Positions 1-14,462 of a stretch of DNA of 14,635 nucleotides are shown here, in pieces; the first letter of the stretch is position 1, and every line of letters begins with the position of its first letter. Under the pieces are notes generated by a model that saw only the letters and a program-made list of their open reading frames with translations, ran no database searches and had not been told where the DNA came from. Source of the stretch: Parcubacteria group bacterium (lineage in GTDB: Bacteria; Patescibacteriota; Minisyncoccia; Phycocordibacterales; DATDWN01); contig JBEBJP010000019.1 of assembly GCA_040079825.1 (NCBI GenBank), positions 1 through 14,635 on the forward strand, read 5' to 3'. Made by a program: the position numbers and the translations under genes.

Positions 1-515
1 GACAGACTTATATCATTATCTAATTCATTAAGCTCACGCTCGGATAATTCATAAAGATTTTTGAGTTTTAATTTTGCTTTCTTTGCACGTTTCTTGGTTA
101 TGCGCCACGCATAAAGCACAAGAAGAACATTCATTGGTATTGCACTAATTAGAGGAAGACCATCAATAAAAAGACCAAGAAACCAAAAATAAAACTTTAT
201 TTTCCATTTCAAAAACCAACCTTTCCCAAGCATGAAAAAGAAAAGAAATGAAGTTAGAAAAAGACCTGTAAAAAAACTAACTCCAGGAATAAGACCAATC
301 ATTAAGAAAGTTAAAACTATATCTAAAAAATCCTTAAACGCCGCGAGAAGTAAAGGAATCATAAAAGCAGACTCGTCGTTCCCTTTTTCGATCTCAGTAT
401 TTAATTTTATCGCTAACTTTTTAGCTAGGTGTATTATTCTCCGTTCAACAGCAACATCTCTAACGATCAGTGATTTTAATGTGCTTTTTCCAGAATAATG
501 ATAGTTGTCAGCCAT
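1..515 (-). CDS. Membrane protein, truncated by the window edge (first 171 codons present)
   Basis: Hand translation of the minus strand from ATG (complement of 513-515) stays open to position 1: MADNYHYSGKSTLKSLIVRDVAVERRIIHLAKK..FMIPLLLAAFKDFLDIVLTFLMIGLIPGVSFFTGLFLTSFLFFFMLGKGWFLKWKIKFYFWFLGLFIDGLPLISAIPMNVLLVLYAWRITKKRAKK.. It has several long hydrophobic stretches. It is missing from the supplied track because it has no stop inside the window. The listed + ORF 232-498 is its Lys-rich antisense shadow. Confidence 0.5.
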   Translation of the reverse strand, partial: MADNYHYSGKSTLKSLIVRDVAVERRIIHLAKKLAIKLNTEIEKGNDESAFMIPLLLAAFKDFLDIVLTFLMIGLIPGVSFFTGLFLTSFLFFFMLGKGWFLKWKIKFYFWFLGLFIDGLPLISAIPMNVLLVLYAWRITKKRAKKAKLKLKNLYELSERELNELDNDISL

Positions 516-556
516 ACAAATAATTCAAAAGGAGTAAATATAATCTGTTAATTATG

Positions 557-612
557 TGCTAACTATAGTATGTAGAATCAAAGTTAGCAAGTATCTACAC
601 TTTTAGTGTAGA
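557..612 (+). promoter_or_regulatory. Two palindromic candidate operators in the divergent intergenic region upstream of the XRE gene
   Basis: TGCTAACT (557-564) and AGTTAGCA (582-589) form an 8-bp inverted repeat with a 17-bp spacer. TCTACAC (594-600) and GTGTAGA (606-612) form a 7-bp inverted repeat with a 5-bp spacer that touches the ATG at 612. Both were read directly from the sequence. The operator function is inferred. Confidence 0.35.
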
Positions 613-827
613 TGATAAATAAACAAATACTTACACAATTTGGGAAGCGAGTACGACAAGAACGAGATAAGAAAGGTTACTCTCAAGAAAGACTGGGAGA
701 ACTCGCAAAAGTACACCGAACATATATCGGCATGATTGAGCGTGCTGAGAAAAATATTACCCTGACAAATATGGAAAAGATCGCTCGTGCTTTAGGTAAA
801 AAAGTAAATGACCTTGTGGATTTTTAG
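612..827 (+). CDS. XRE-family helix-turn-helix transcriptional regulator (71 aa), resembling R-M controller (C) proteins
   Basis: The ORF track protein contains the typical HTH_3 pattern: GYSQERLGELAKVHRTYIGMIERAEKNITLTNMEKIARALG. The small single-domain size matches this family. Confidence 0.85.
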   Translation: MINKQILTQFGKRVRQERDKKGYSQERLGELAKVHRTYIGMIERAEKNITLTNMEKIARALGKKVNDLVDF

Positions 828-945
828 ATAAGGATTATTTTGGGATTAGTTAATAATTTATTTATATAATTGTCCTTGTTCAAACATAACTATTTTATTG
901 GTGAGTGTCTTCAAAGTATTTAAAATCAATATCATCTGCACAATT

Positions 946-1215
946 TTAGTTTGGAAATAATTTCGAAATATCAAACTCAAAAACAGCACTTGCTCTTGAT
1001 TTGATTCCCCTTAGTTCTTCGTCGGTCAAATCACTTCGACCAATTCTCTGAATAAGAGTTTCAATTGCATCTTTAACTTTTGCTAAGTGACTAATCGTTT
1101 CGGCTTTTTCTCCTTCAATCATTGTCATGGCTTTTGAGGTGTCTAGAAAACCATCAGCATTTTGTTTTGCACCCACAATTTTTTCAGAACCATTGTTATA
1201 CCCCTCCATTCCCAT
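946..1215 (-). CDS. Hypothetical protein (89 aa)
   Basis: ORF only, with no motif I recognise. It has its own promoter-like element upstream and follows the terminator of the toxin gene. Confidence 0.4.
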   Translation of the reverse strand: MGMEGYNNGSEKIVGAKQNADGFLDTSKAMTMIEGEKAETISHLAKVKDAIETLIQRIGRSDLTDEELRGIKSRASAVFEFDISKLFPN

Positions 1216-1244
1216 AAATTTTGTAGTTAAATGTTAATAAGATA

Positions 1245-1273
1245 ATTATAGTATGTATTTTTGCTATAAACAA
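1245..1273 (-). promoter_or_regulatory. Candidate sigma70-type promoter for the 89-aa ORF
   Basis: On the minus strand: TTGTTT (complement of 1268-1273), a 17-nt spacer, then TATAAT (complement of 1245-1250). It lies about 30 nt upstream of the ATG at 1215. Confidence 0.3.
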
Positions 1274-1311
1274 GGGCAGGTTGAACTAAATTTGTAATAT
1301 TGATTGTTCAT

Positions 1312-1339
1312 TTGACATTCATATTCAGTCCTGTATACT
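1312..1339 (+). promoter_or_regulatory. Near-consensus sigma70-type promoter on the + strand with no ORF downstream
   Basis: TTGACA (1312-1317), a 16-nt spacer, then TATACT (1334-1339). Transcription would start near 1346 and run into the hairpins at 1353-1362 and 1368-1393. Confidence 0.35.
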
Positions 1340-1367
1340 AATGGTACAAAGTGCCGAAAGGCTCCGA

Positions 1368-1393
1368 GAAACCCCGCAGAGATGCGGGGTTTC
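1368..1393. terminator. GC-rich hairpin at the 3' end of the MazF-like gene, a possible bidirectional terminator
   Basis: GAAACCCCGCA-GAGA-TGCGGGGTTTC is an 11-bp stem. It lies 3 nt from the toxin stop codon (1397-1399). It is followed by TTTC on the minus strand and GATTTAT on the plus strand, so both T-runs are weak. Confidence 0.5.
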
Positions 1394-1396
1394 GAT

Positions 1397-1801
1397 TTAT
1401 ACTAGAAATCCTCTCAATTTATCTCTTACTTTTACAAAGTCGTTATTGGAAATATCGTATATTTTTCTTTTCAATCTTTTTACACTAACCAGTTTTAATT
1501 GAGCTAAAATAACAGAAACCTTTTCTCCATTTGGATCAGTAAAATTAAAATAAAAATCAAATTTCTTTTGTTTGGTTGAAAGCGAAGCACACCAAAACAT
1601 GTGATTGTTAAATTTTTTAACGACTAGAACAGGACGAGAAAAATTTGTTCCACTTCCATTTTGTTCAAAACCGATATTCTTGCCAAGTGAAGACATCCAA
1701 ACTTCTCCCTCCTTTGGAAAGTAATCTGGCTCGGTAGTTTCAGATTGAATCTTTTTCTTTAGCTCATTCCAAGCGTCATATTCTTTTTCTTCATTATTCA
1801 T
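1397..1801 (-). CDS. PemK/MazF-family toxin-like endoribonuclease (134 aa)
   Basis: Family signature in correct order and spacing: GEVWMSSLGKNIGFEQNGSGTNFSRPVLVVKKF...SLSTK...VSVILAQLKLVSVKRLKRKIYDIS. Compare E. coli MazF: GDLIWVDFDPTKGSEQAGHRPAVVLS...ADQVKSIAWRAR. Confidence 0.75.
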   Translation of the reverse strand: MNNEEKEYDAWNELKKKIQSETTEPDYFPKEGEVWMSSLGKNIGFEQNGSGTNFSRPVLVVKKFNNHMFWCASLSTKQKKFDFYFNFTDPNGEKVSVILAQLKLVSVKRLKRKIYDISNNDFVKVRDKLRGFLV

Positions 1802-1821
1802 TTGCTTATCTTCTCAAATTT

Positions 1822-2357
1822 GTTTGCCGTAGGCAAACGGCTCAATTCTTCCCATGTGAGCAGTAAGGCTCACACTTGCGAGGGAGTCTTCTCGCCGTAG
1901 GCGTTCTCGTGTGCGCGCATGGGAGGGTTGGGGCAAGCACACATAATACTTTGAGTCTCGGACATGTTCCGTTTTGGGCGTGGTTAAATAAAAACAAAAG
2001 TGTACACTAACCACTAGCCCAAAGGAATGTGCGAGACACCATTTGAATTGGCACTAGAATTCCGTCAGTTTCTCCCTTAAGGAGAAACCCGCCCGAGACT
2101 CACCCCCGCCATACCGAATCCAAATGCAATCCGCGCCAAACAAACTTGCATGGGGTCGGGGGCGGGGCGAGGGCGGACACGGAACAGCGGGAACGGAGGC
2201 AGACTGTCGTACCCGACAGTCTGGTGGAGTGGACGCTGTGCCGTGACGGAATTCGTCGTGGAGCGTACAGATTAACTCAACACAACCACACGCTTCGCGC
2301 GTGCGACATCATTACTCACCGATTTTGGAAACAGGTTCGGATTTGGTAAAATAAACG
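1822..2357. ncRNA. Candidate large structured non-coding RNA, or other structured non-coding element. Strand and class are undetermined.
   Basis: G+C jumps sharply: 36 of 60 in 1861-1920 and 42 of 60 in 2161-2220, against 14 of 60 in 1441-1500. Stems are dense. Local hairpins are at 1822-1838, 1855-1874, 2068-2088 and 2200-2223 (a perfect 10-bp stem). Long-range pairs are 1952-1961 with 2093-2102 (10 bp) and 2104-2110 with 2161-2167. Only two short ORFs of odd composition are present. Confidence 0.4.
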
Positions 2358-2504
2358 CACCTTAAACGAACTAAAGGGTTCTGAATGCGAACCCAAGCGG
2401 AACGCCCGAAGGGCGTGCCAAGGATTTTCTGGCGGGGTTGCAAGGGAATTCTGGGATTTTGGCGCGCAAGCGCGCAAGGTTTTTTCGCCGAGGAGGAGGT
2501 TCGA
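2358..2504. repeat. Left copy of a perfect 147-bp inverted repeat (IR-L)
   Basis: A block-by-block reverse-complement comparison with 4077-4223 gives 147 of 147 identity. Identity breaks at 2357/4224 and at 2505/4076. Confidence 0.97.
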
Positions 2505-2553
2505 TATCAGAAACGATTTTGACTATGTACATGCTTCGCATACAAAAAGAATT

Positions 2554-2582
2554 TTGTTGCTAATTGTTTTTATTGGTATACT
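2554..2582 (+). promoter_or_regulatory. Candidate promoter of the recombinase gene
   Basis: TTGTTG (2554-2559), a 17-nt spacer, then TATACT (2577-2582). TG at 2574-2575 gives an extended -10 (TGgTATACT). It lies about 100 nt upstream of the ATG at 2688. Confidence 0.4.
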
Positions 2583-2687
2583 ACATTTGCTCTTAGTTCT
2601 ATTCGTTAATTCCAATAGCCACTTTGTGTTAGTTTTTTCTCACGATTAAGCTAAGAGCCACAGAGTGGTTATTCGAGTTTTAATTTT

Positions 2688-4406
2688 ATGTCACAAAAAT
2701 TCTTTTTGTATGCTCGCAAGAGCACCGATGTCGAGGATAAACAAGTTTTGAGTATTGAGGCACAGTTAACGGAATTGCGCGCGTTTGCTCGTGAACAGAA
2801 TTTAGAAATAGTTGAGGAGTTGGTGGAGAAACAGTCGGCCAAAATTCCTGGTCGTCCTATATTCAACAGTATGATGAAAAAACTTGAGCAAGGTGTTGCT
2901 CAAGGAATTTTGGCCTGGCATCCCGACAGACTGGCGCGCAATTCTGTAGACGGCGGACAAATAGTGTACTTTCTCGACATCGGAAAAATTCAAAATCTAA
3001 AGTTTATCTCGCACTGGTTTGAAAATACTCCGCAAGGAAAATTCTCATTATCAATGGCTTTCGTCCAAAGCAAATACTATGTCGATTCTCTTTCCGAAAA
3101 TACGAAACGCGGACTTCGCCAAAAAGTACGCATGGGTATATTCCCAAGCCAAGCTCCTTTGGGGTATTTGAACGACAGTAGAACAAAAACTATTGTGGTA
3201 AATCGAAAGCAAGCAAAAATTATCCGCTTGGCTTTTGAGAAATATGTTAAAGGTGGTGAGAGACTGGAAGATATCGCAAACTTTTTGGCGAAGTCCGGCA
3301 TTCTCACATGGAACGGAAAGAGAATCTCAAAAACAAGAACATCATTCATTTTGTCTAATACATTTTATGTTGGTTTCTTCAATTATTCTGGAGAATTGCA
3401 CGAAGGTAAACACGAGCCAATCATTTCAAAGAAACTTTTTGATGAAGCACAGGAAATGTTAAGAAAAAGAGGTCAGCCAGAGCGAAAAGCTAAAAATGAA
3501 CCTCAACCTTTTTGTGGATTAGTGTCCTGTGCTTCATGTGGAATGATGATAACTGGCGAACACAAATTCAAAAGGCAGAAGAATGGCAATGTTCACGAAT
3601 ATACTTACTATCGCTGTACTAAAAAACGTAAAGATTTTCAGTGTAAAGAATCTGCCGTTAGAGAAAAAGAAATGGATCGCCAGTTATCATCCCTAATTCA
3701 AAAAGTTTCTTTACCCAAAGACTGGGCGGAGGAGTTATTAACCATGGCGGAAAATGACCACAAGAACTCCGCCCCGTCTTTGGTTGCTTGTGTGAAAGAG
3801 AAACAAGAGATGATTTCTTCTTTGTCTAAAAAACTAGAGCGACTTCTCAATGGTTACCTCGACCAAGATATTGAAAAAGAAGTGTATCGTGTAGAAAAAG
3901 CAAAATTGTTATCCACGAAGAAGTCGCTCGAAGAAGAAATGACATCTCTTTCACACAAGCAAAATGATTGGCTCGAACCGATGCAAAAGTGGATACAAAA
4001 GGCTCAAACAATGGACAAAATCGCTTCTGATCCAGACCTTTTTGCTAAAAAGGTCTGTGCCAAAGAAATCTTTGGCTCGAACCTCCTCCTCGGCGAAAAA
4101 ACCTTGCGCGCTTGCGCGCCAAAATCCCAGAATTCCCTTGCAACCCCGCCAGAAAATCCTTGGCACGCCCTTCGGGCGTTCCGCTTGGGTTCGCATTCAG
4201 AACCCTTTAGTTCGTTTAAGGTGTCCGAGAGAGGACTTGAACCTCCACAGCTTGCGCCATACGAACCTCAATCGTACGTGTTTACCAGTTACACCACTCG
4301 GACATCAAACAATCAAATATACTTGAATTGTTGCTTTTTATCTATTTTCAAAGTCGTTTCTATTTTCTCGCGTTTTCTAGACAAACAAACAACATCTGAA
4401 CTATAG
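2688..4406 (+). CDS. Large serine recombinase/integrase (resolvase catalytic domain, recombinase domain, zinc ribbon, coiled coil)
   Basis: N-terminus FFLYARKSTDVEDKQVLSIEAQ carries the catalytic Ser motif, and HPDRLARN follows. The zinc ribbon is CGLVSCASCG...YYRCTKKRKDFQC, followed by a long coiled-coil region. The conserved family end (EIFGSNLLLGEKTL) lies near 4070-4110. The ORF then runs without a stop through IR-R, antisense tRNA-Leu and antisense HE gene to 4406. The last 60-100 residues are probably fortuitous read-through. Confidence 0.9.
   Translation: MSQKFFLYARKSTDVEDKQVLSIEAQLTELRAFAREQNLEIVEELVEKQSAKIPGRPIFNSMMKKLEQGVAQGILAWHPDRLARNSVDGGQIVYFLDIGKIQNLKFISHWFENTPQGKFSLSMAFVQSKYYVDSLSENTKRGLRQKVRMGIFPSQAPLGYLNDSRTKTIVVNRKQAKIIRLAFEKYVKGGERLEDIANFLAKSGILTWNGKRISKTRTSFILSNTFYVGFFNYSGELHEGKHEPIISKKLFDEAQEMLRKRGQPERKAKNEPQPFCGLVSCASCGMMITGEHKFKRQKNGNVHEYTYYRCTKKRKDFQCKESAVREKEMDRQLSSLIQKVSLPKDWAEELLTMAENDHKNSAPSLVACVKEKQEMISSLSKKLERLLNGYLDQDIEKEVYRVEKAKLLSTKKSLEEEMTSLSHKQNDWLEPMQKWIQKAQTMDKIASDPDLFAKKVCAKEIFGSNLLLGEKTLRACAPKSQNSLATPPENPWHALRAFRLGSHSEPFSSFKVSERGLEPPQLAPYEPQSYVFTSYTTRTSNNQIYLNCCFLSIFKVVSIFSRFLDKQTTSEL
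4077..4223. repeat. Right copy of the perfect 147-bp inverted repeat (IR-R)
   Basis: Exact reverse complement of 2358-2504. It lies inside the recombinase reading frame. Its outer 2 nt (4222-4223) are the discriminator and last acceptor base of tRNA-Leu. Confidence 0.97.
4096..4119 (-). terminator. Weak terminator-like hairpin downstream of tRNA-Leu, with a mirror copy on the + strand at 2462-2485
   Basis: Read in the repeat orientation: GCGCG-CAAG-CGCGC, then AAGG, then TTTTTT. The stem is short and there is a 4-nt gap before the T-run, so this is tentative. Confidence 0.3.
4222..4303 (-). tRNA. tRNA-Leu (anticodon GAG), type II with long variable arm
   Basis: Reverse complement folds as a cloverleaf: GTCCGAG TG GTGT AACTGGTAA ACAC G TACGA TTGAGGT TCGTA TGGCGCAAGCTGT GGAGG TTCAAGT CCTCT CTCGGAC A. 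All stems pair, the T-loop is TTCAAGT and the discriminator is A73. Confidence 0.9.
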
Positions 4407-4990
4407 TACATTTTCTTAATGATTTCCATTGCCTCTCTTTTTGCATATTTTAATTGATAACAACCATTTACTCTTTTTGTTGAAGTAATATACCCAACGA
4501 CTTCAATTCGTTTTTTTAATTCCTCTTGAATCCATTCAAGAAATTTTCTACTGCCAGAAGAAAAGCCTATATAGTACATAAAACTTGAACGCCACCGTGG
4601 ATCCCAATAGCTATAGCTCGACCCGTCACCATCAAAACAACCACGCAAAAAATCAAAGAAATATTTCGGTGGGATTTCAATTTTTCTCAACGTAAGAGAT
4701 TTTTTATTAGTCAATCCAATAGAAAGAAGGAAGTTGTAAAAAATACGATTTTTAAATTGTATTCTTAATGCTTTTCTTCCAAAACCAGAAGATTTTTCAC
4801 CTATTTTAAAATCAACACCAAGACATTTTGAATAATTTTTCAATTATTCCATTTCAATAGATGTCAAATCGATAAGTAACCCATCACAAGATAGATAACC
4901 ATCAGTAGTTATTAGGCCGATTGCATATGCTAAATTTGACCTCCAAGTAACGTCAATAATCTTTTTTGGTTTCGGTCCCCTTTTAACCAT
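4313..4990 (-). pseudogene. Two-motif LAGLIDADG homing endonuclease interrupted by one in-frame TAA (codon 49)
   Basis: The N-terminal piece (4847-4990) reads MVKRGPKPKKIIDVTWRSNLAYAIGLITTDGYLSCDGLLIDLTSIEME and carries motif 1. A TAA follows at 4844-4846. The same frame then continues as LKNYSKCLGV...FFDFLRGCFDGDGSSYSY (motif 2) to 4313. Confidence 0.7.
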
Positions 4991-5042
4991 GTCTAATATT
5001 ATAATATCTCAATGTAATAACGTCTACTAATTTATCCTAATC

Positions 5043-5068
5043 AAAAAACATCCTTTCGGATGTTTTTT
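5043..5068. terminator. Bidirectional intrinsic terminator after rplS
   Basis: AAAAAACATCC-TTTC-GGATGTTTTTT lies 2 nt from the rplS stop (5071-5073). Confidence 0.75.
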
Positions 5069-5070
5069 GA

Positions 5071-5493
5071 TTATTCTTCAGATTCTGTTTTTGCTTCCTC
5101 TGTTGTCTCTTCAACGTCGGCACTTGGAGTATTGTCTGGAAGAGCTCTGATATTTCTCATTTGTCGTCTGATCTCCTTAGCAGCTTTGTCTCTTATGTGA
5201 TATAGCTTTGCTCGTCTAACTTTTGATCTCTTTATAGTTTCTATAGAATCGATCATAGGAGAATATAGAGGGAAGATTTTCTCAACTCCTACACCTGACG
5301 CAACACGTCTCACTGTGAAAGTTGCCCCAGCTTCTTTGCCGTGCTTTACAGCTATTACCAAACCTTCAAAAGCCTGAAGTCTTGTCTTTCCTTTTTCCTG
5401 AATTTTTTGCCAAACACGAATAGAATCGCCTGATCTAATATCAAGTGCTTTTCTGTCAGCTACTTTAACTGGTGACTGAATAGTTGTTTCCAT
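5071..5493 (-). CDS. rplS: 50S ribosomal protein L19 (bL19) with an acidic C-terminal tail
   Basis: IRSGDSIRVWQKIQEKGKTRLQAFEGLVIAVKHGKEAGATFTVRRVASGVGVEKIFPLYSPMIDSIETIKRSKVRRAKLYHIRD matches the conserved bL19 core. Confidence 0.95.
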   Translation of the reverse strand: METTIQSPVKVADRKALDIRSGDSIRVWQKIQEKGKTRLQAFEGLVIAVKHGKEAGATFTVRRVASGVGVEKIFPLYSPMIDSIETIKRSKVRRAKLYHIRDKAAKEIRRQMRNIRALPDNTPSADVEETTEEAKTESEE

Positions 5494-5516
5494 AACCCAA
5501 GTAATCTATCACAGGA

Positions 5517-6254
5517 TTAGTAGCTTTGCAATAGATCCAGGGCGTTCGCAAAATCCGCAGGGTACGGGGCTACTATGGTGTGTGTGTCCCCTTTTTGGTC
5601 AGCAAACGACAGGCAATACGAATGCAGAGCTAGTCTGACAAAACCCAGGTTGTTTTCCCTGTTTGGAGCATAAACCGAGTCGGCCACCAAAGGATAACTA
5701 ATGGCTTTGAAATGCACACGAATCTGGTGGGTCCTACCTGTTTTAGGCTTAACCTCAACAAAAGAATAGTCTTTGTTACTTTTTAAAACTTTGTAATGAG
5801 TCTCCGCTTCTCTTAACTCACCCCTGGCACCCCTTTGAGCCGACCACATTCGGAAATCTTTTGAACTCCTGCCGATAGGACGGTCTATAACGTCTTCTGT
5901 TTTTTTTAATTGACCATAAACAAACGCATGATAAGTTTTTTCTATATTGTGATTCTTAAATTTATCCTTTAAAAATTCAAAAGTTTCTTGATTTTTAGCA
6001 ATCATCATTACACCAGAAGTTTCCCTATCCAAACGATGAACAATACCCGAACGTAGAACGGTTTCTCCGTTTGCTGTTCTTCCGGGCTCGCCAACATCCT
6101 TGATTTGTGGGTAGTTTTTTAATATCCAGTCCACCAGATTTTTCTCTTTGATCTTTCCTGCTTCTTTTGCATGCCCGTCATCATGAACAACCAATCCAGA
6201 CGGTTTGTTTATGACCAAAATATTAGCATCTTCGTACAAAATAGTAGGTTCCAT
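5517..6254 (-). CDS. RluA-family 23S rRNA/tRNA pseudouridine synthase (no S4 domain)
   Basis: ILVINKPSGLVVH, the catalytic motif HRLDRETSGVMMIAK, and TGRTHQIRVH are present. I prefer the ATG at 6254, 1 nt after the uppS stop, over the TTG at 6266 used in the track. Confidence 0.85.
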   Translation of the reverse strand: MEPTILYEDANILVINKPSGLVVHDDGHAKEAGKIKEKNLVDWILKNYPQIKDVGEPGRTANGETVLRSGIVHRLDRETSGVMMIAKNQETFEFLKDKFKNHNIEKTYHAFVYGQLKKTEDVIDRPIGRSSKDFRMWSAQRGARGELREAETHYKVLKSNKDYSFVEVKPKTGRTHQIRVHFKAISYPLVADSVYAPNRENNLGFVRLALHSYCLSFADQKGDTHTIVAPYPADFANALDLLQSY

Positions 6255-6255
6255 A

Positions 6256-6951
6256 TTACTTACCAATTCTTCTTTCCCTGTTACTGTACTCTTCTATAAT
6301 CTTTAAAAATTCTTCTTTATTAAAATCTGGCCACAGTGTTTTTGTAAAAAACAGCTCACTGTAAACTCCTTGCCATGGTAAAAACCCAGACAACCTCATT
6401 TCACCTGAAGTTCTAATAATAATATCTGGATCAGGCATCGGATATGTCTGCAAATTTTTTGCAAAGAAGTCCTCGTTAATATCCTCTATATTTGGATTTT
6501 GCTGGATTATTTTTTTAACTGCCGACAGTATCTCGGCTCTTCCGCCATAGTTTAAAGCGAAGTAAACATTTATACCTGAATTATTTTTTGTTTTTTCAAC
6601 AGATTCAGACAGTGTCCTTTGTAGACCTTCGGAGAAACATGAGAGATCCCCAACATAATGCAAAACACCGTTTTCTTTATTAAAATAATCTAGTTCTTTT
6701 TTTATAAAACCACTGATCAAATCCAGTAGATAAAAAACTTCTTCATCCGAACGTTTCCAGTTCTCTGTAGAAAACGTATAGAAAATAATATGTTTAATAC
6801 CTAGATCATTGGCATCTTTAATGATTGTCTTTAGAGTCTGCCCCCCAGCCTGATGCCCCTTCAATATATGCATCTCGTTTCCCCTGGCCCATCTCCTGTT
6901 ACCGTCCATTATTATACCTACACAATTGGGTATTTTCATTTCTGCACTCAT
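6256..6951 (-). CDS. uppS: Isoprenyl transferase / undecaprenyl-diphosphate synthase
   Basis: GIIMDGNRRWA, FSTENWKR and IRTSGEMRLSGFLPWQ are hallmark cis-prenyltransferase motifs. Confidence 0.92.
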   Translation of the reverse strand: MSAEMKIPNCVGIIMDGNRRWARGNEMHILKGHQAGGQTLKTIIKDANDLGIKHIIFYTFSTENWKRSDEEVFYLLDLISGFIKKELDYFNKENGVLHYVGDLSCFSEGLQRTLSESVEKTKNNSGINVYFALNYGGRAEILSAVKKIIQQNPNIEDINEDFFAKNLQTYPMPDPDIIIRTSGEMRLSGFLPWQGVYSELFFTKTLWPDFNKEEFLKIIEEYSNRERRIGK

Positions 6952-7016
6952 TCGAATAATTGTACATTATTTTGTTGCTTGATAAAAGAGGATTAATGAT
7001 GTAATCTAAAAACATT

Positions 7017-7090
7017 GCGGGATTAGCTCAGTTGGTTAGAGCAATTCATTTACACTGAATAGGCCGGGGGTTCGAGTCCTCCATCCCGCA
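7017..7090 (+). tRNA. tRNA-Val (anticodon TAC)
   Basis: Acceptor GCGGGAT pairs with ATCCCGC. D arm is GCTC-AGTTGGTTA-GAGC. Anticodon arm is ATTCA-TTTACAC-TGAAT. T arm is GGGGG-TTCGAGT-CCTCC. No CCA is encoded. Confidence 0.92.
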
Positions 7091-7155
7091 CAAGTCATAG
7101 ATATTTTGCTAGTAAATCACTCGCAAAATTCTACGACCCTGCCTCGCTCAAATAT

Positions 7156-7227: not shown

Positions 7228-7230
7228 CAA

Positions 7231-7274
7231 CAAGCATGAAAAAAACTGGATCATTCCAGTTTTTTTCATGCTTG
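7231..7274. terminator. Long bidirectional intrinsic terminator shared by the tRNA pair (+) and the pil operon (-)
   Basis: CAAGCATGAAAAAAACTGGA-TCAT-TCCAGTTTTTTTCATGCTTG is a perfect 20-bp stem containing A and T runs. Confidence 0.8.
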
Positions 7275-8200: not shown

Positions 8201-8740
8201 TTATGAACCTATGGTCATTGTTATTGAAAATTTTATATCTCTATCTTTTGTAAAATTTGAAATTGGCGAATCTATTTTTTTAAAAGAATGAGTATCTTCT
8301 AGTCCCTTTATAAAATCTGACAGAGACTCTCTGGTAGCAGAAACACCTTGTATGATCATTATAGATGATGAAGCTGTATTTGATTTGTAGGCAAATTGAT
8401 TTATTTTTATATAACGTGACTTATTTGTTAGAACGGTGTTTATAACTGGAACCACTTCTTTATACTCTAGAGTTGCATTGATCACACCAACTTTCTGGTT
8501 AACTGATTTTATTATGGATTTAGTTGAACTTGCACTCAAGACTGAAATTGAATTATTCATTTTGTCTGATTGCAGGATCAAATCTTTCTCTCTATAAAAT
8601 GAAGTTAACCATGATGGTAAAATAAACACTATAAAAACCACCTGAATAAACAAAATAAAATATAGTATTGTTATAAACCTTCGAAGTCTGTACTCCGATT
8701 TTATTTTATTTTTTAATTCATCAGGAAGAAGATTGGACAT
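8201..8740 (-). CDS. pilN: PilN-like type IV pilus assembly protein
   Basis: The N-terminal NLLPDE motif is followed by a TM helix (FITILYFILFIQVVFIVFILP). The gene lies immediately downstream of pilM. Confidence 0.6.
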   Translation of the reverse strand: MSNLLPDELKNKIKSEYRLRRFITILYFILFIQVVFIVFILPSWLTSFYREKDLILQSDKMNNSISVLSASSTKSIIKSVNQKVGVINATLEYKEVVPVINTVLTNKSRYIKINQFAYKSNTASSSIMIIQGVSATRESLSDFIKGLEDTHSFKKIDSPISNFTKDRDIKFSITMTIGS

Positions 8741-14231: not shown

Positions 14232-14303
14232 GCTCTTGTAGTTTAACGGATAGAATGCTGGCCTGCGAAGCTGGCGATCCAGGTTCGACTCCTGGCGAGA
14301 GCA
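14232..14303 (+). tRNA. tRNA-Arg (anticodon GCG)
   Basis: Acceptor GCTCTTG pairs with CGAGAGC. D arm is GTTT-AACGGATA-GAAT, which is wobble-rich. Anticodon arm is CTGGC-CTGCGAA-GCTGG. T arm is CCAGG-TTCGACT-CCTGG. Confidence 0.85.
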
Positions 14304-14347
14304 CAAGACGAAAAAATCTGGACTTCTCCAGATTTTTTCGTCTTGTG
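14302..14347. terminator. Long intrinsic terminator after tRNA-Arg(GCG)
   Basis: CACAAGACGAAAAAATCTGGA-CTTC-TCCAGATTTTTTCGTCTTGTG is a perfect 21-bp stem. It has the same design as the terminator at 7231-7274. Confidence 0.8.
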
Positions 14348-14462
14348 CTGGACGGAGATATGTTTTTTCATCAGAAAAAACAATCGAGTCAGGGTCGTGG
14401 AAATTTCGTTTTGACGAAAACAAAATTATCCCTGACCACACAAACCCCTGACCACAAAATAC

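Follow-up and report, generated by a model that had tools for sequence, protein, structure and literature searches.

The window, i.e. the whole 14,635-nucleotide stretch analysed here (contig JBEBJP010000019.1 of a Parcubacteria group bacterium), contains a gene for a large serine recombinase (LSR) bracketed by a long inverted repeat. The two repeat arms, 2358-2504 and 4077-4223, are 147 nt long, 100% complementary and spaced 1572 nt apart. A repeat search over the whole window gave as runner-up an inverted pair of just 43 nt at 72%. The search confirms the perfect repeat described in a first-pass annotation made from the sequence alone. The statement that the 1,866-bp unit holds the recombinase gene only also holds, its content being a single ORF (2688-4406) and a 183-nt upstream region. 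The same is true of the GC-richness of the repeat, 0.558 compared with 0.387 for the interior and 0.363 for the window. The features of the locus are as follows.

1-1903: part of a cargo segment (the E2 interior), cut by the left end of the window
6-515, minus strand: truncated ORF in the cargo segment
612-827, plus strand: HTH_3 protein (Pfam) in the cargo segment
946-1215, minus strand: 89-aa ORF in the cargo segment
1397-1801, minus strand: PemK/MazF-like toxin (Pfam) in the cargo segment
1904-2089: region 'a', conserved and non-repeated, adjoining the IR2 arm
2090-2360, plus strand: arm of a second inverted repeat (IR2), rich in GC and in hairpins; the related loci L085 and L001 have homologous arms, and the partner of this one lies outside the window
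2322-2357, plus strand: X arm, proposed P-type half-site of junction J1 (..AGGTTCGGATTTGGTAAAATAAACG), conserved in relatives whichever the tRNA partner
2358-2360, plus strand: core CAC of junction J1, X-CAC-Y (attP-like, intact), holding the presumed crossover dinucleotide (CA or AC)
2358-2504, plus strand: IR1_L, left arm of the 147-nt repeat (repeat search, alignment fold, terminator scan)
2376-2394: hairpin 1 (terminator scan)
2399-2419: hairpin 2, with a 9-bp GC stem and a GAA loop (alignment fold); mirror copy at 4162-4182
2462-2485, plus strand: hairpin 3 and T-run (GCGCGCAAGCGCGC AAGG TTTTTT), terminator-like and facing inward (terminator scan)
2505-2687, plus strand: LSR upstream region
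2688-4406, plus strand: LSR ORF, 572 codons as it stands (Pfam Resolvase, Recombinase, Zn_ribbon_recom)
4077-4223, plus strand: IR1_R, right arm of the 147-nt repeat, coding for LSR residues 464-512
4220-4303, minus strand: tRNA-Leu(GAG), a host gene left intact and the putative B-type half of a recombined attachment site (ARAGORN 4220-4303, Rfam 4222-4303)
4221-4223, minus strand: core of junction J2, tRNA-CAC-Y (attR-like), equal to tRNA positions 72 and 73 and the next C

Bases 2506-2555 of the upstream region are ~84% conserved among relatives. A promoter-like TTGACT-16 nt-TACAAA was read by eye within this stretch; it is not listed by a consensus promoter scan.

From the tip to the inside, the left repeat arm comprises the Y tip (the proposed P' half-site), three hairpins, a T-run and an antisense copy of LSR codons 464-475. 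The three hairpins noticed earlier were recovered, those at 2376-2394 and 2462-2475 by the terminator scan and that at 2399-2419 by the alignment fold. Across 29 elements, 98.3% of the cells in hairpin 2 are paired, without G-U pairs, and compensatory double changes occur at 5 of 8 pairs. Its covariation score was reached by none of 500 shuffles. Covariation was demonstrated for hairpin 2 alone; the other hairpins of the repeat appear by eye to covary. The mirror of the terminator-like site at hairpin 3 lies on the minus strand at 4119-4096, ~100 nt downstream of the tRNA-Leu 3' end. In Rfam searches the window (E <= 1) was matched by tRNAs only, and five related loci likewise had no hit except tRNAs at the gathering score. 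A known structured RNA was thus rejected as an identification of the repeat and the GC-rich block.

The LSR possesses an N-terminal resolvase catalytic domain (PF00239, residues 6-150, E 3.7e-21), a recombinase domain (PF07508, residues 174-261) and a zinc ribbon (PF13408, residues 274-333). The serine nucleophile motif YARKST was read from the translation at residues 8-13. The zinc ribbon is followed by a long stretch in the place where LSRs carry a coiled coil, an assignment made here by position. The best relatives of solved structure are the SPbeta and A118 integrases, with low sequence identity, E values of about 1e-11 and an alignment that reaches residue ~446. More than 7,700 homologues score above the search threshold, and the listed source names point to Patescibacteria/CPR. 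Exact-protein look-ups showed that neither the LSR nor the LAGLIDADG protein of the window is on record. A phage or plasmid origin was rejected, since IMG/VR yielded no relative and every match in PLSDB and a phage collection was below 30% identity.

[quoted passage not shown] The ORF traverses the entire arm and then the tRNA in antisense, so that residues 1-475 form the conserved enzyme, residues 476-512 derive from the hairpin part of the repeat, and residues 513-572 correspond to antisense tRNA-Leu and its flank. In all 17 loci compared, the LSR frame passes through the repeat without a stop, and the other five frames have stops in 7-13 of the 17. An untranslated tail is doubtful because of this open frame. 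A purely protein-constrained tail was rejected, because the covariation of hairpin 2 entails radical amino-acid changes and the outer 37 codons of the repeat-encoded tail show weak codon periodicity. Among 120 homologue ends, the tail LLYQVRTYFQN[KR] encoded by X occurs in 19-22 and antisense-tRNA tails in at least 77. Read antisense, the left junction of the window gives RLFYQIRTCFQNR-stop; in a flipped orientation the LSR frame would meet its stop 14 codons past the repeat.

The first-pass annotation described the repeats and their content rightly. One point needs correcting: the unit does not stand alone, for the GC-rich block at ~1904-2357 on its left is a conserved part of the same element. 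Window positions 1904-2361 match the reverse of L085 3139-3593 at 89% and also match L001 2580-2851. L085 is the closest relative, with an 88% LSR, the same tRNA-Leu(GAG) and a complete two-segment layout, and its two IR2 arms (3139-3407 and 5771-6039) are 100% identical to one another. The window holds one X copy only, and the partner arm of the outer repeat is absent from it at up to 3 mismatches. Completeness of this element is beyond demonstration because the second IR2 arm lies outside the window. One other trace of IR2, a 13-nt match at 8615-8627, is probably due to chance. A 2.3-kb Logan contig, found via the MazF-like protein, equals window positions 6-2348 at 100% and ends at both limits. 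It was the sole contig of the same population to emerge from the exact-protein look-ups, and no near-identical genome with an unoccupied site turned up.

The cargo differs in every relative. Homologues of the MazF-like protein recur in two of them, in L157 within the cargo that the repeats enclose and in L049 immediately beyond X'. No protein is common to the cargo segments, and their Pfam matches are assorted enzymes or none. A second recombinase or a replication protein was accordingly rejected as the content of the second segment. No conserved small gene fit to be a recombination directionality factor was found in the element, and for this reason excision, which in LSR systems needs such a factor, is unexplained.

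The outer tip of the repeat overlaps the last 2 nt of tRNA-Leu(GAG), as the limits set by ARAGORN and Rfam confirm. These are acceptor base 72 and the discriminator, and the overlap becomes 4 nt if the following CC is counted. The repeat tip supplies the CCA end in most relatives; here its contribution is limited to the second C of CC, since CACC is followed by T and A76 is lacking. Twelve relatives contain both repeat pairs and show three junctions, X-CAC-Y, tRNA-CAC-Y and X-CAC-B', and CAC is the sole run of bases common to all three types. A second segment, likewise bounded by repeats and carrying variable cargo, abuts the first, and the X-CAC-B' (attL-like) junction marks its far end. The B' sequences vary and are rich in AT, and several of them can be read as hairpins. 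In 11 of the 12 relatives the two repeat pairs overlap by 3-6 nt where they meet, the overlap being the common core. Both element ends are seen in these relatives; in the window, where ARAGORN and Rfam still call the tRNA, the tRNA end alone is visible.

The distance from GTTC to the core is 23 nt in 83 X junctions versus 19 nt in 115 tRNA flanks. The DBD2 domain of SPbeta integrase sits 4 bp nearer the centre on attB than on attP half-sites (PMC11722253). As judged from sequence, the motif in X is offset from that in the T-arm by the same 4 bp as in the P/B shift of that integrase. The sites thus combine a short common core with a motif 4 bp nearer the centre on the attB-like side, within the 4-5 bp usual for LSR sites. 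Against such a reading, Y is no mirror of X, B' lacks conservation, and each partner shows just one good half-site. X was also considered as a decayed tRNA 3' half, and this was rejected because its spacing is 4 nt too long, its stems are unpaired and ARAGORN calls nothing there.

More than 100 independent Patescibacteria contigs have homologous LSRs bracketed by this repeat. They stem from many studies and were built by many assemblers, and some are 148-623 kb long. The repeat flanks homologous recombinases at most of the loci in two sets, 80 from genomes and 80 from metagenomes, and it recurs at the 3' ends of many different tRNAs. The tRNA slot is taken by Leu, Val, Arg, Thr, Gly, Tyr, Glu, Ala, Ile, Lys, Asp, Met or Gln, and LSR genes 91-94% identical in nucleotides occupy different tRNAs. 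Of the 84 arm pairs that reach 120 nt or more, 35 show 100% identity, 27 fall at 95-99% and 10 lie under 95%. L085 and L105 contain tandem arrays. A more distant case is L079, a locus retained at 51% identity, whose second LSR copy likewise has two repeat pairs that abut.

The flanks are arranged as X, LSR reading rightward, tRNA in 55 loci and as tRNA, LSR reading rightward, X in 3, counts in which the orientation of the enclosed segment is unreliable for short-read contigs, the window included, when the arms are 100% identical and longer than the assembly k-mer. Among loci with arms that differ enough for reliable assembly the ratio is 20 to 1. X flanks the LSR on both sides in L015, L139 and L145. 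In L015 and L139, which are reliably assembled because their arms are 89-91% identical, a complete X-CAC-Y lies on either side of the LSR. Two different tRNA genes flank the LSR in each of L010 and L021, without X; in L056 a tRNA is at the left and the contig ends 2 nt past the right arm. None of the relatives surveyed had a copy in which a tRNA flank was paired with a flank of ordinary target DNA, and no closed circle or otherwise excised form was recovered from their loci.

We consider it likely that the unit is one of two segments of an LSR-driven integrative element that inserts at tRNA 3' ends and carries its attP region twice, in inverted orientation. The element is apparently a very common, undescribed mobile element of Patescibacteria. 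The attachment region would span ~400 bp and comprise the X arm, the CAC core and the Y arm, with GC-rich hairpins behind both arms, and one copy would lie on each side of the LSR gene. The perfect 147-bp repeat would then be the Y-side (P'-side) half of the duplicated, inverted region. The copy downstream of the LSR would have recombined with the tRNA-Leu 3' end, leaving its Y half (4077-4223) next to the tRNA and its X half at the far end of the cargo segment, outside the window. The copy upstream would still be intact: X occupies 2322-2357, the core 2358-2360, and Y runs inward from 2358. The LSR probably recognises a GGTTCGA-like motif in both partners, as a B-type half-site in the tRNA T-loop and as a P-type half-site in X, where it lies 4 bp further out. 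This would explain the many different tRNAs used as targets. The repeat also carries the tRNA CCA end in most relatives, the inward terminator-like hairpin and the last folded LSR codons. With the crossover inside the LSR frame, integration would swap the conserved 13-codon tail for antisense-tRNA codons.

X-CAC-Y is probably a functional attP, judging by these junctions and the motif spacing, and integration of the element is inferred from junction logic. The free form would presumably be a circle with two attP copies. The enclosed segment may also invert, and gene conversion may keep the arms identical through homogenisation. Equivalent attP copies predict parity of the two orientations, so the skew of 55 to 3 means that some bias or selection must be assumed.

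Three other explanations were weighed against this two-segment element. That one repeat arm is an assembly artefact, a chimeric or fold-back join, had been named as a finding that would undo the first interpretation, and it deserves hardly any credence. Assemblers do mis-walk here, L117, L083 and L091 being palindromic walks of this kind and L117 having the same tRNA on both sides at 100% identity. However, the shared architecture of the more than 100 contigs is not accounted for in this way, 37 arm pairs of at least 120 nt are below 99% identity, which is not expected of a fold-back, many contigs break exactly at the arms, as a true repeat would cause, and the junction sequences are shorter than one read. 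It is also very improbable that the unit of 1,866 bp moves on its own, as a recombinase-only transposon whose terminal inverted repeats are the 147-bp arms. Its circle, as in one of the two earlier readings, would contain a 294-bp palindrome with a joint reading ..TTCGTTTAAGGTG followed by CACCTTAAACGAA... In favour of this, the unit is compact, with perfect repeats at its bounds and a recombinase as sole content, and the L010 and L021 copies do sit between two tRNA genes with X absent. However, the cores at its tips are inverted (CAC 2358-2360, GTG 4221-4223), so conservative site-specific recombination between them would invert the segment and could neither excise it nor resolve it into a circle. 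The flank opposite the tRNA is almost always X, conserved in at least 55 loci and never ordinary target DNA, and X belongs to a second repeat pair abutting the first. A transposon with terminal inverted repeats would have variable target DNA at both ends, and here one flank is always conserved X or tRNA.

The remaining alternative, that the cassette is chiefly an invertible switch, is unlikely but has more in its favour. The arms would recombine, by the LSR at the cores or by homologous recombination, and flip 2505-4076. This would toggle the LSR between the native tail encoded by X and an antisense-tRNA tail, or change what its promoter reads into. Both orientations exist among relatives, with L082 reliably assembled because its arms are only 96% identical; the orientations give different C-terminal tails, of which LLYQVRTYFQN[KR] is conserved and held in frame; and long identical arms imply ongoing exchange between them. 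Nonetheless, free flipping predicts a ratio of about 1 to 1, in conflict with the skew both overall and in the reliably assembled loci, and characterised LSRs pair attP with attB or attL with attR, not attP with attR (PMC11722253). The contigs L148 and L149 are 100% identical, yet disagree in orientation and in far flank, which is no clean flip. This disagreement and the palindromic walks led us to drop the contigs as proof of inversion. The self-inverting cassette proposed in the other earlier reading is thus possible in principle, given both orientations in relatives, but its suggested read-through to the MazF-like toxin is unsupported: that gene is variable cargo, a terminator-like hairpin on the minus strand (2303-2287) lies ahead of it, and the flipped frame stops 14 codons on. 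A switch could also act on top of the integration that we favour.

If the two-segment element is real, an integrase that reads the universal tRNA T-arm would have nearly any tRNA gene as a landing site. The choice of attP copy, or later inversion through the 147-bp arms, would switch the LSR between a native and a scrambled tail, and its activity or directionality would be controlled from within, with no need of a separate directionality factor. The internal attP, being intact, could bring about both exchange of cargo and inversions between tRNA genes. Its proximity to many potential tRNA targets may account for such inversions in these genomes; the cassette lies between two different tRNAs in L010 and L021, and a tRNA is at the one flank that the L056 contig retains. 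An unrecognised class of Patescibacteria elements that jointly combines the T-arm-reading integrase, two identical inverted attP copies, the tail-switching crossover and exchange driven by the internal attP is a tentative proposal, and it is doubtful that all its parts hold together. The attachment-site assignment with its 4-bp motif shift is directly testable on short synthetic sites. The analysis places an unstudied family of more than 7,700 LSR relatives in a defined mobile element of tiny-genome organisms, whose gene-exchange routes are poorly known. Many CPR assemblies end beside tRNA and recombinase genes because assembly stops in these repeats. For genome engineering, it would be of use to have an integrase that recognises, at a fixed register, the T-arm conserved among many tRNAs. 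The double-attP layout, which resembles engineered cassette-exchange designs, may also interest genome engineers.

Full-text literature searching found no account of such an architecture, in line with the first-pass annotation, which knew of no described system of this kind. The tycheposons of Prochlorococcus are cargo-carrying integrative elements at tRNA genes, a minority of which have a large serine recombinase (10.1101/2020.12.28.424599). Each of their integrases is specific to one tRNA, their direct partial-tRNA repeats are ~40 nt, and many carry replication genes (10.1101/2020.12.28.424599). Like the present elements they occupy tRNA genes in small, streamlined genomes, and no inverted duplication of the attachment region is reported for them (10.1101/2020.12.28.424599). 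The LSR shares its domain set, and a short core common to its sites, with the large serine integrases (SPbeta SprA/YokA, A118/LI, phiC31 and Bxb1), and its partner sites, like attP and attB of SPbeta, have the outer motif shifted by 4 bp. Unlike known serine integrases, the present system has an attachment region duplicated in inverted orientation within a ~400-bp hairpin-rich repeat, many tRNA targets, a crossover inside the integrase frame and no conserved directionality factor gene. The earlier judgement that a perfect 147-bp pair is far outside the usual ends of LSR elements is upheld.

The DNA invertases Hin, Gin, Cin and Pin belong to the small serine recombinases; they are ~190 aa long, carry an HTH at the C-terminus, act on 26-bp sites and need a Fis-bound enhancer. 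The Hin gene lies inside its invertible segment, and systems of this type are neither mobile nor tRNA-linked. A serine recombinase gene and a segment bounded by inverted repeats are common to both, but the enzyme here is an LSR of 475+ aa and the orientation is strongly skewed; at least 475 residues are conserved, the domains are those of LSRs without an HTH, and the repeats are 147 bp long. An attP inside its own integrase gene occurs in intP of myxophage Mx8 and in int of fusellovirus SSV1, both coding for tyrosine integrases, and integration of SSV1 splits the int gene rather than altering its tail. Integration would likewise alter the 3' end of the integrase frame here, with a ~13-codon conserved tail replaced by antisense-tRNA codons, but Mx8 and SSV1 are not known to carry a second, inverted copy of the site and gene end. 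The yeast 2-micron plasmid carries FLP/FRT inside two 599-bp inverted repeats. FLP, a tyrosine recombinase, recombines two identical sites and inverts the segment, which amplifies copy number. The serine integrase studied here is instead expected to pair attP with attB, and its element has no conserved replication gene. If the free form is a circle, the two would nonetheless share the same layout, in which two long inverted repeats bearing the sites separate two unique segments, one of which codes for the recombinase.

Self-comparison of the window identified one dominant inverted repeat, whose two arms are 100% complementary over 147 nt and lie 1572 nt apart; the runner-up inverted pair spans only 43 nt at 72%. 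The gene between the arms encodes a large serine recombinase (LSR) with Resolvase, Recombinase and Zn_ribbon_recom domains, the closest solved relatives of which are the SPbeta and A118 serine integrases.

Features of the window surrounding the LSR gene, by position.
1-1903: cargo, comprising a truncated ORF, an HTH protein, an 89-aa ORF and a PemK/MazF-like toxin
1904-2089: 'a', a conserved non-repeated region beside one arm of a second inverted repeat pair, IR2 (comparison with locus L085)
2090-2360: IR2 arm (comparison with locus L085)
2322-2357: X, the conserved flank opposite the tRNA, reading ..GAAACAGGTTCGGATTTGGTAAAATAAACG
2358-2504 and 4077-4223: opposed arms of the 147-nt inverted repeat
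2399-2419, mirrored at 4162-4182: hairpin 2 of the repeat (covariation, 29 elements)
2688-4406, plus strand: LSR gene, the sole gene between the arms
4220-4303 (ARAGORN) or 4222-4303 (Rfam), minus strand: tRNA-Leu(GAG)
4313-4843, minus strand: free-standing LAGLIDADG_3-like ORF, 176 aa, directly upstream of the tRNA-Leu(GAG) 5' end

By the tRNA coordinates, the repeat terminus covers the final acceptor base, the discriminator base and the CC after it. The right arm starts exactly at codon S464 of the LSR gene, and the reading frame crosses the entire arm and continues antisense across the tRNA to a stop at 4406. The repeat has a GC content of 0.558, against 0.387 for the interior and 0.363 for the window. 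The repeat, tRNA, domain and GC analyses thus bear out everything that the first-pass annotation had observed directly about the repeat, the gene, the tRNA overlap and the base composition. Its interpretation, either a recombinase-only mobile unit or a self-inverting cassette, holds in part: the feature is real, but it is not a stand-alone transposon with terminal inverted repeats.

The search with the LSR gave more than 7,700 homologues, with identities of 61–84% among the top 120, and source names among the homologues listed point to Patescibacteria/CPR. Homologous LSR loci (L001, L085 and so on) were retrieved, 80 from reference genomes and 80 from JGI metagenomes. Self-comparison of these loci revealed a ~147-nt inverted repeat (range ~130–180 nt) bracketing the LSR wherever the contig was long enough, and recurrence of the unit in relatives and at other tRNA 3' ends, a question raised by the first-pass annotation, was confirmed among them. 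A great many of the relatives' contigs terminate within the repeat, as expected because a true repeat breaks assemblies. The 147-nt repeat is a family trait, neither accident nor artefact. Its inner boundary falls at a constant codon in all loci, between ..AKEIFG and SNLLLGEK... Identity was compared for 84 arm pairs of 120 nt or more: it is 100% in 35, 95–99% in 27 and below 95% in 10. The spread of arm identity extends from 100% down to 78–83%, and the two repeat pairs are concordant in some elements and not in others. Identity within an element is high compared with the 15–40% divergence of the repeat from element to element, and the two arms therefore evolve in concert, for which gene conversion is the simplest idea.

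From the tip inward, the repeat consists of the tip Y, three hairpins, a T-run and a sense or antisense copy of LSR codons 464–475. The tip reads CACC[A/T]..A....ACT, with invariant alignment columns C3, C4, A8, A13 and C14. In most elements Y supplies the CCA end of the tRNA; the window version has CACC followed by T and so lacks A76. Hairpin 2 is paired in 98.3% of cells across 29 elements and shows compensatory double changes in five of its eight pairs (48 double-change cells versus 13.7 in shuffles, the observed value being reached by 0 of 500). This covariation passes through radical amino acid changes in the overlapping frame (WDALRAS, WAALCAA, WACLRHA, WHALRAF). No G-U pairs occur in hairpin 2 across the 29 elements, which is compatible with a constraint acting on the two strands alike or on the DNA as such. 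Hairpin 3 and the T-run are terminator-like and face inward at both arms, one copy lying ~100 nt past the tRNA and the other preceding the LSR promoter region. The inner 12 codons of the repeat carry a coding signature and synonymous Leu changes, with codon periodicity weak over the outer 37. Nevertheless, no stop interrupts the LSR frame within the repeat in any of 17 loci; each of the other five frames has stops in 7–13 of them.

The tRNA whose 3' end adjoins the repeat tip varies by locus. Leu isoacceptors are the commonest, the other partners being Val, Arg, Thr, Gly, Tyr, Glu, Ala, Ile, Lys, Asp, Met and Gln tRNAs, and LSR genes that are 91–94% identical in nucleotides occupy different tRNAs. 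At L119 (3404-3470) the repeat tip adjoins a T-arm-like sequence (..CAGGTTCGAGTCCTGGTACT directly followed by CGCACCA) that neither ARAGORN nor Rfam calls as a tRNA, the closest called tRNA being ~106 nt off; this sequence is possibly what is left of a tRNA, or a further target resembling one. The flank opposite the tRNA is almost always one conserved sequence, X (consensus ATTTTGAAAATAGGTTCTAACTTGGTACAATAGAGA), which is the tip of IR2. The IR2 arms are GC-rich and 170–400 nt long. One of them abuts the 147-nt repeat, overlapping it by 3–6 nt in 11 of 12 complete relatives, and the other lies 2–6 kb farther off. The contents of the enclosed segment differ in every element compared, and no protein common to these segments was found. 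Pfam matches include LD-carboxypeptidase, HIT, nucleotidyltransferase, glycosyl- and methyltransferases, peptidase S51, aminotransferase, glutamate dehydrogenase, a Schlafen/AlbA_2 protein and an IS transposase; many cargo proteins have no Pfam match. In L059 (3446-3773) a minimal X'-240 bp-X unit without a cargo gene stands beside the LSR cassette, so that the cargo segment can apparently shrink to barely more than its two repeat arms.

The closest relative of the window is L085, which has 88% LSR identity, the same tRNA-Leu(GAG) and the complete layout. By this comparison the window shows the recombinase segment and part of the cargo segment; the partner IR2 arm was not found within the window. 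Window positions 6-2348 are matched at 100% by a Logan contig from the same population that ends at both limits; an assembly break therefore probably accounts for the window's left end. MazF-like cargo genes occur again in L157 and L049. A strong terminator-like hairpin (GAAACCCCGCAGAGATGCGGGGTTTC, 11 pairs) lies on the plus strand at 1368-1393, between the 89-aa ORF and the MazF-like gene. On the other side of the element, homologues of the LAGLIDADG_3-like protein (44–64% identical) occupy the same position beside tRNA-Leu(GAG) in L003, L104, L107 and L118, and additional homologues are present in L040, L141 and L045. This gene has the appearance of a conserved host gene next to tRNA-Leu(GAG) that does not belong to the element.

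Three junctions were lined up on their core in 12 relatives that have both repeat pairs. The middle junction is X-CAC-Y, the tRNA junction, in the tRNA sense, is tRNA-CAC-Y, and the far junction of IR2 is X-CAC-B', where B' is variable and AT-rich. CAC, which matches tRNA positions 72 and 73 plus the C that follows, comprises the sole bases common to the three junctions, with the exception of CTC in L063. L065 lacks a second repeat pair and carries TAC in its place. This pattern is expected from recombination of an attP (X-CAC-Y) with an attB (tRNA-CAC-B'), which yields both outer junctions. It is unusual that an intact attP-like site persists in the middle of the element. It follows that a ~400-bp region around the core, IR2 plus the 147-nt repeat, occurs twice in inverted orientation, one copy being intact and the other split by integration, and the 147-nt repeat would be the Y-side half of the duplicated attachment region. 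Several B' sequences can be read as hairpins resembling the terminators that follow unoccupied tRNA genes in the window (7231-7274 and 14300-14349). At 7228-7274 and 14304-14349 the two tRNA-Arg genes end ..GAGAGCACAA with CCA not encoded, and each is directly followed by a perfect 20–23 bp hairpin terminator; these ends look like the unoccupied target (tRNA-CAC-A..hairpin). The CACCA of most relatives comes from the element tip. A 13-nt exact match to the end of the X arm (TGGTAAAATAAAC), followed by AC, lies in direct orientation at 8615-8627, within an ORF on the minus strand (8201-8740), and may be chance or a pseudo-site.

Across all loci, GTTC precedes the core by exactly 19 nt in 115 tRNA flanks, corresponding there to the T-loop, and by 23 nt in 83 X flanks. 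Large serine integrases tell attP and attB half-sites apart by where the second DNA-binding domain sits, with a shift of mostly 5 bp, and 4 bp for the SPbeta integrase (PMC11722253). Among solved integrases, the SPbeta enzyme is the one nearest to the LSR. A near-universal T-loop sequence read at a constant distance from the core would account for the wide range of tRNAs used.

The presumed crossover falls within the LSR reading frame. Among the best 120 homologues, at least 77 have antisense-tRNA tails of variable length past the repeat, and 19–22 read X backwards and end in a conserved tail, LLYQVRTYFQN[KR]. The left junction of the window, in antisense reading, gives ..FSSFKVRLFYQIRTCFQNR-stop. 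When the putative attP copy on the 3' side of the LSR gene recombines, a conserved 13-codon tail is therefore traded for scrambled codons.

With the LSR read left to right, 55 loci have the order X, LSR, tRNA and three (L027, L082 and L148) have the order tRNA, LSR, X; X flanks both sides in L015 (the same as L126), L139 and L145. Contigs cannot settle the orientation of a segment enclosed by identical arms; among loci with arms divergent enough for reliable assembly the ratio is 20 to 1, and the cassette therefore does not flip freely, or one state is strongly favoured. Possibly there is selection for the form in which the integrase tail is scrambled on integration. L148 and L149 derive from the same organism and are 100% identical, yet their orientation and far flank disagree. 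The cargo segment was found in both orientations relative to the LSR, with the same caveat for assemblies of identical arms: the 'a' region adjoins the distal IR2 arm in L001, L008, L044 and L085, and the proximal arm in the window. Palindromic contigs were encountered in L117 (1-455 / 2034-2488), L083 (909-2251 / 5033-6375) and L091 (1-2202 / 4920-7119), with the same tRNA or the same LSR inverted at both ends at 99.7–100% identity; these are most likely assembler mis-walks through the repeats.

In L010 (5590-7563) and L021 (5698-7613) two different convergent tRNA genes flank the LSR cassette, the arms of which are only 83–88% identical, and X is absent; in L056 (4934-6749) the tRNA is on the left and the contig ends 2 nt beyond the right arm. 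These three loci are consistent with recombination of the internal attP with a second tRNA, or with cassette exchange. A second LSR cassette with its own repeat arms was observed on the far side of the cargo in L085 (1909-3177) and L105 (1440-3042). These second cassettes are partial and partly decayed, with residues 2–248 matched in L085 and 2–436 in L105, and the resulting arrays alternate as cassette, cargo, cassette, tRNA.

We propose an LSR-driven integrative element whose two segments, LSR and cargo, would be divided by a repeat that bears attP and is present as two inverted copies. This element would enter the tRNA 3' end via the attP copy downstream of the LSR gene, and its free form would carry two attP copies. 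The internal attP could recombine with a second tRNA, leaving the cassette between two tRNAs and chromosome segments inverted. The assignment of X-CAC-Y as the site, together with integration at the tRNA 3' end, is probably correct; the remainder of the mechanism is put forward with less assurance. The loci with X-CAC-Y on both sides, the L085 and L105 arrays and the L059 loop lend indirect support to a free form carrying attP twice. The loci examined yielded neither a circle nor an empty site, and no directionality factor is conserved in the element.

At the level of its sequence, the enzyme is predicted to be a large serine integrase. A Hin-type invertase system was rejected for this element, as was a self-moving transposon with terminal inverted repeats. 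A full-text literature search, with most subscription journals outside its coverage, returned no description of the architecture or of serine recombinase elements in Patescibacteria, and the feature is a real, widespread and, as it seems, undescribed variant of the LSR integrative element. It resembles the tycheposons as an integrative element that targets tRNA genes, whereas it has neither their long direct tRNA repeats nor their tie to one tRNA. In layout, the double inverted attachment region is reminiscent of the yeast 2-micron plasmid, although the chemistry and the expected pairing of sites differ. The att site lies within the integrase frame in Mx8 and SSV1, and the putative att site of the present element has a like position inside the integrase frame.
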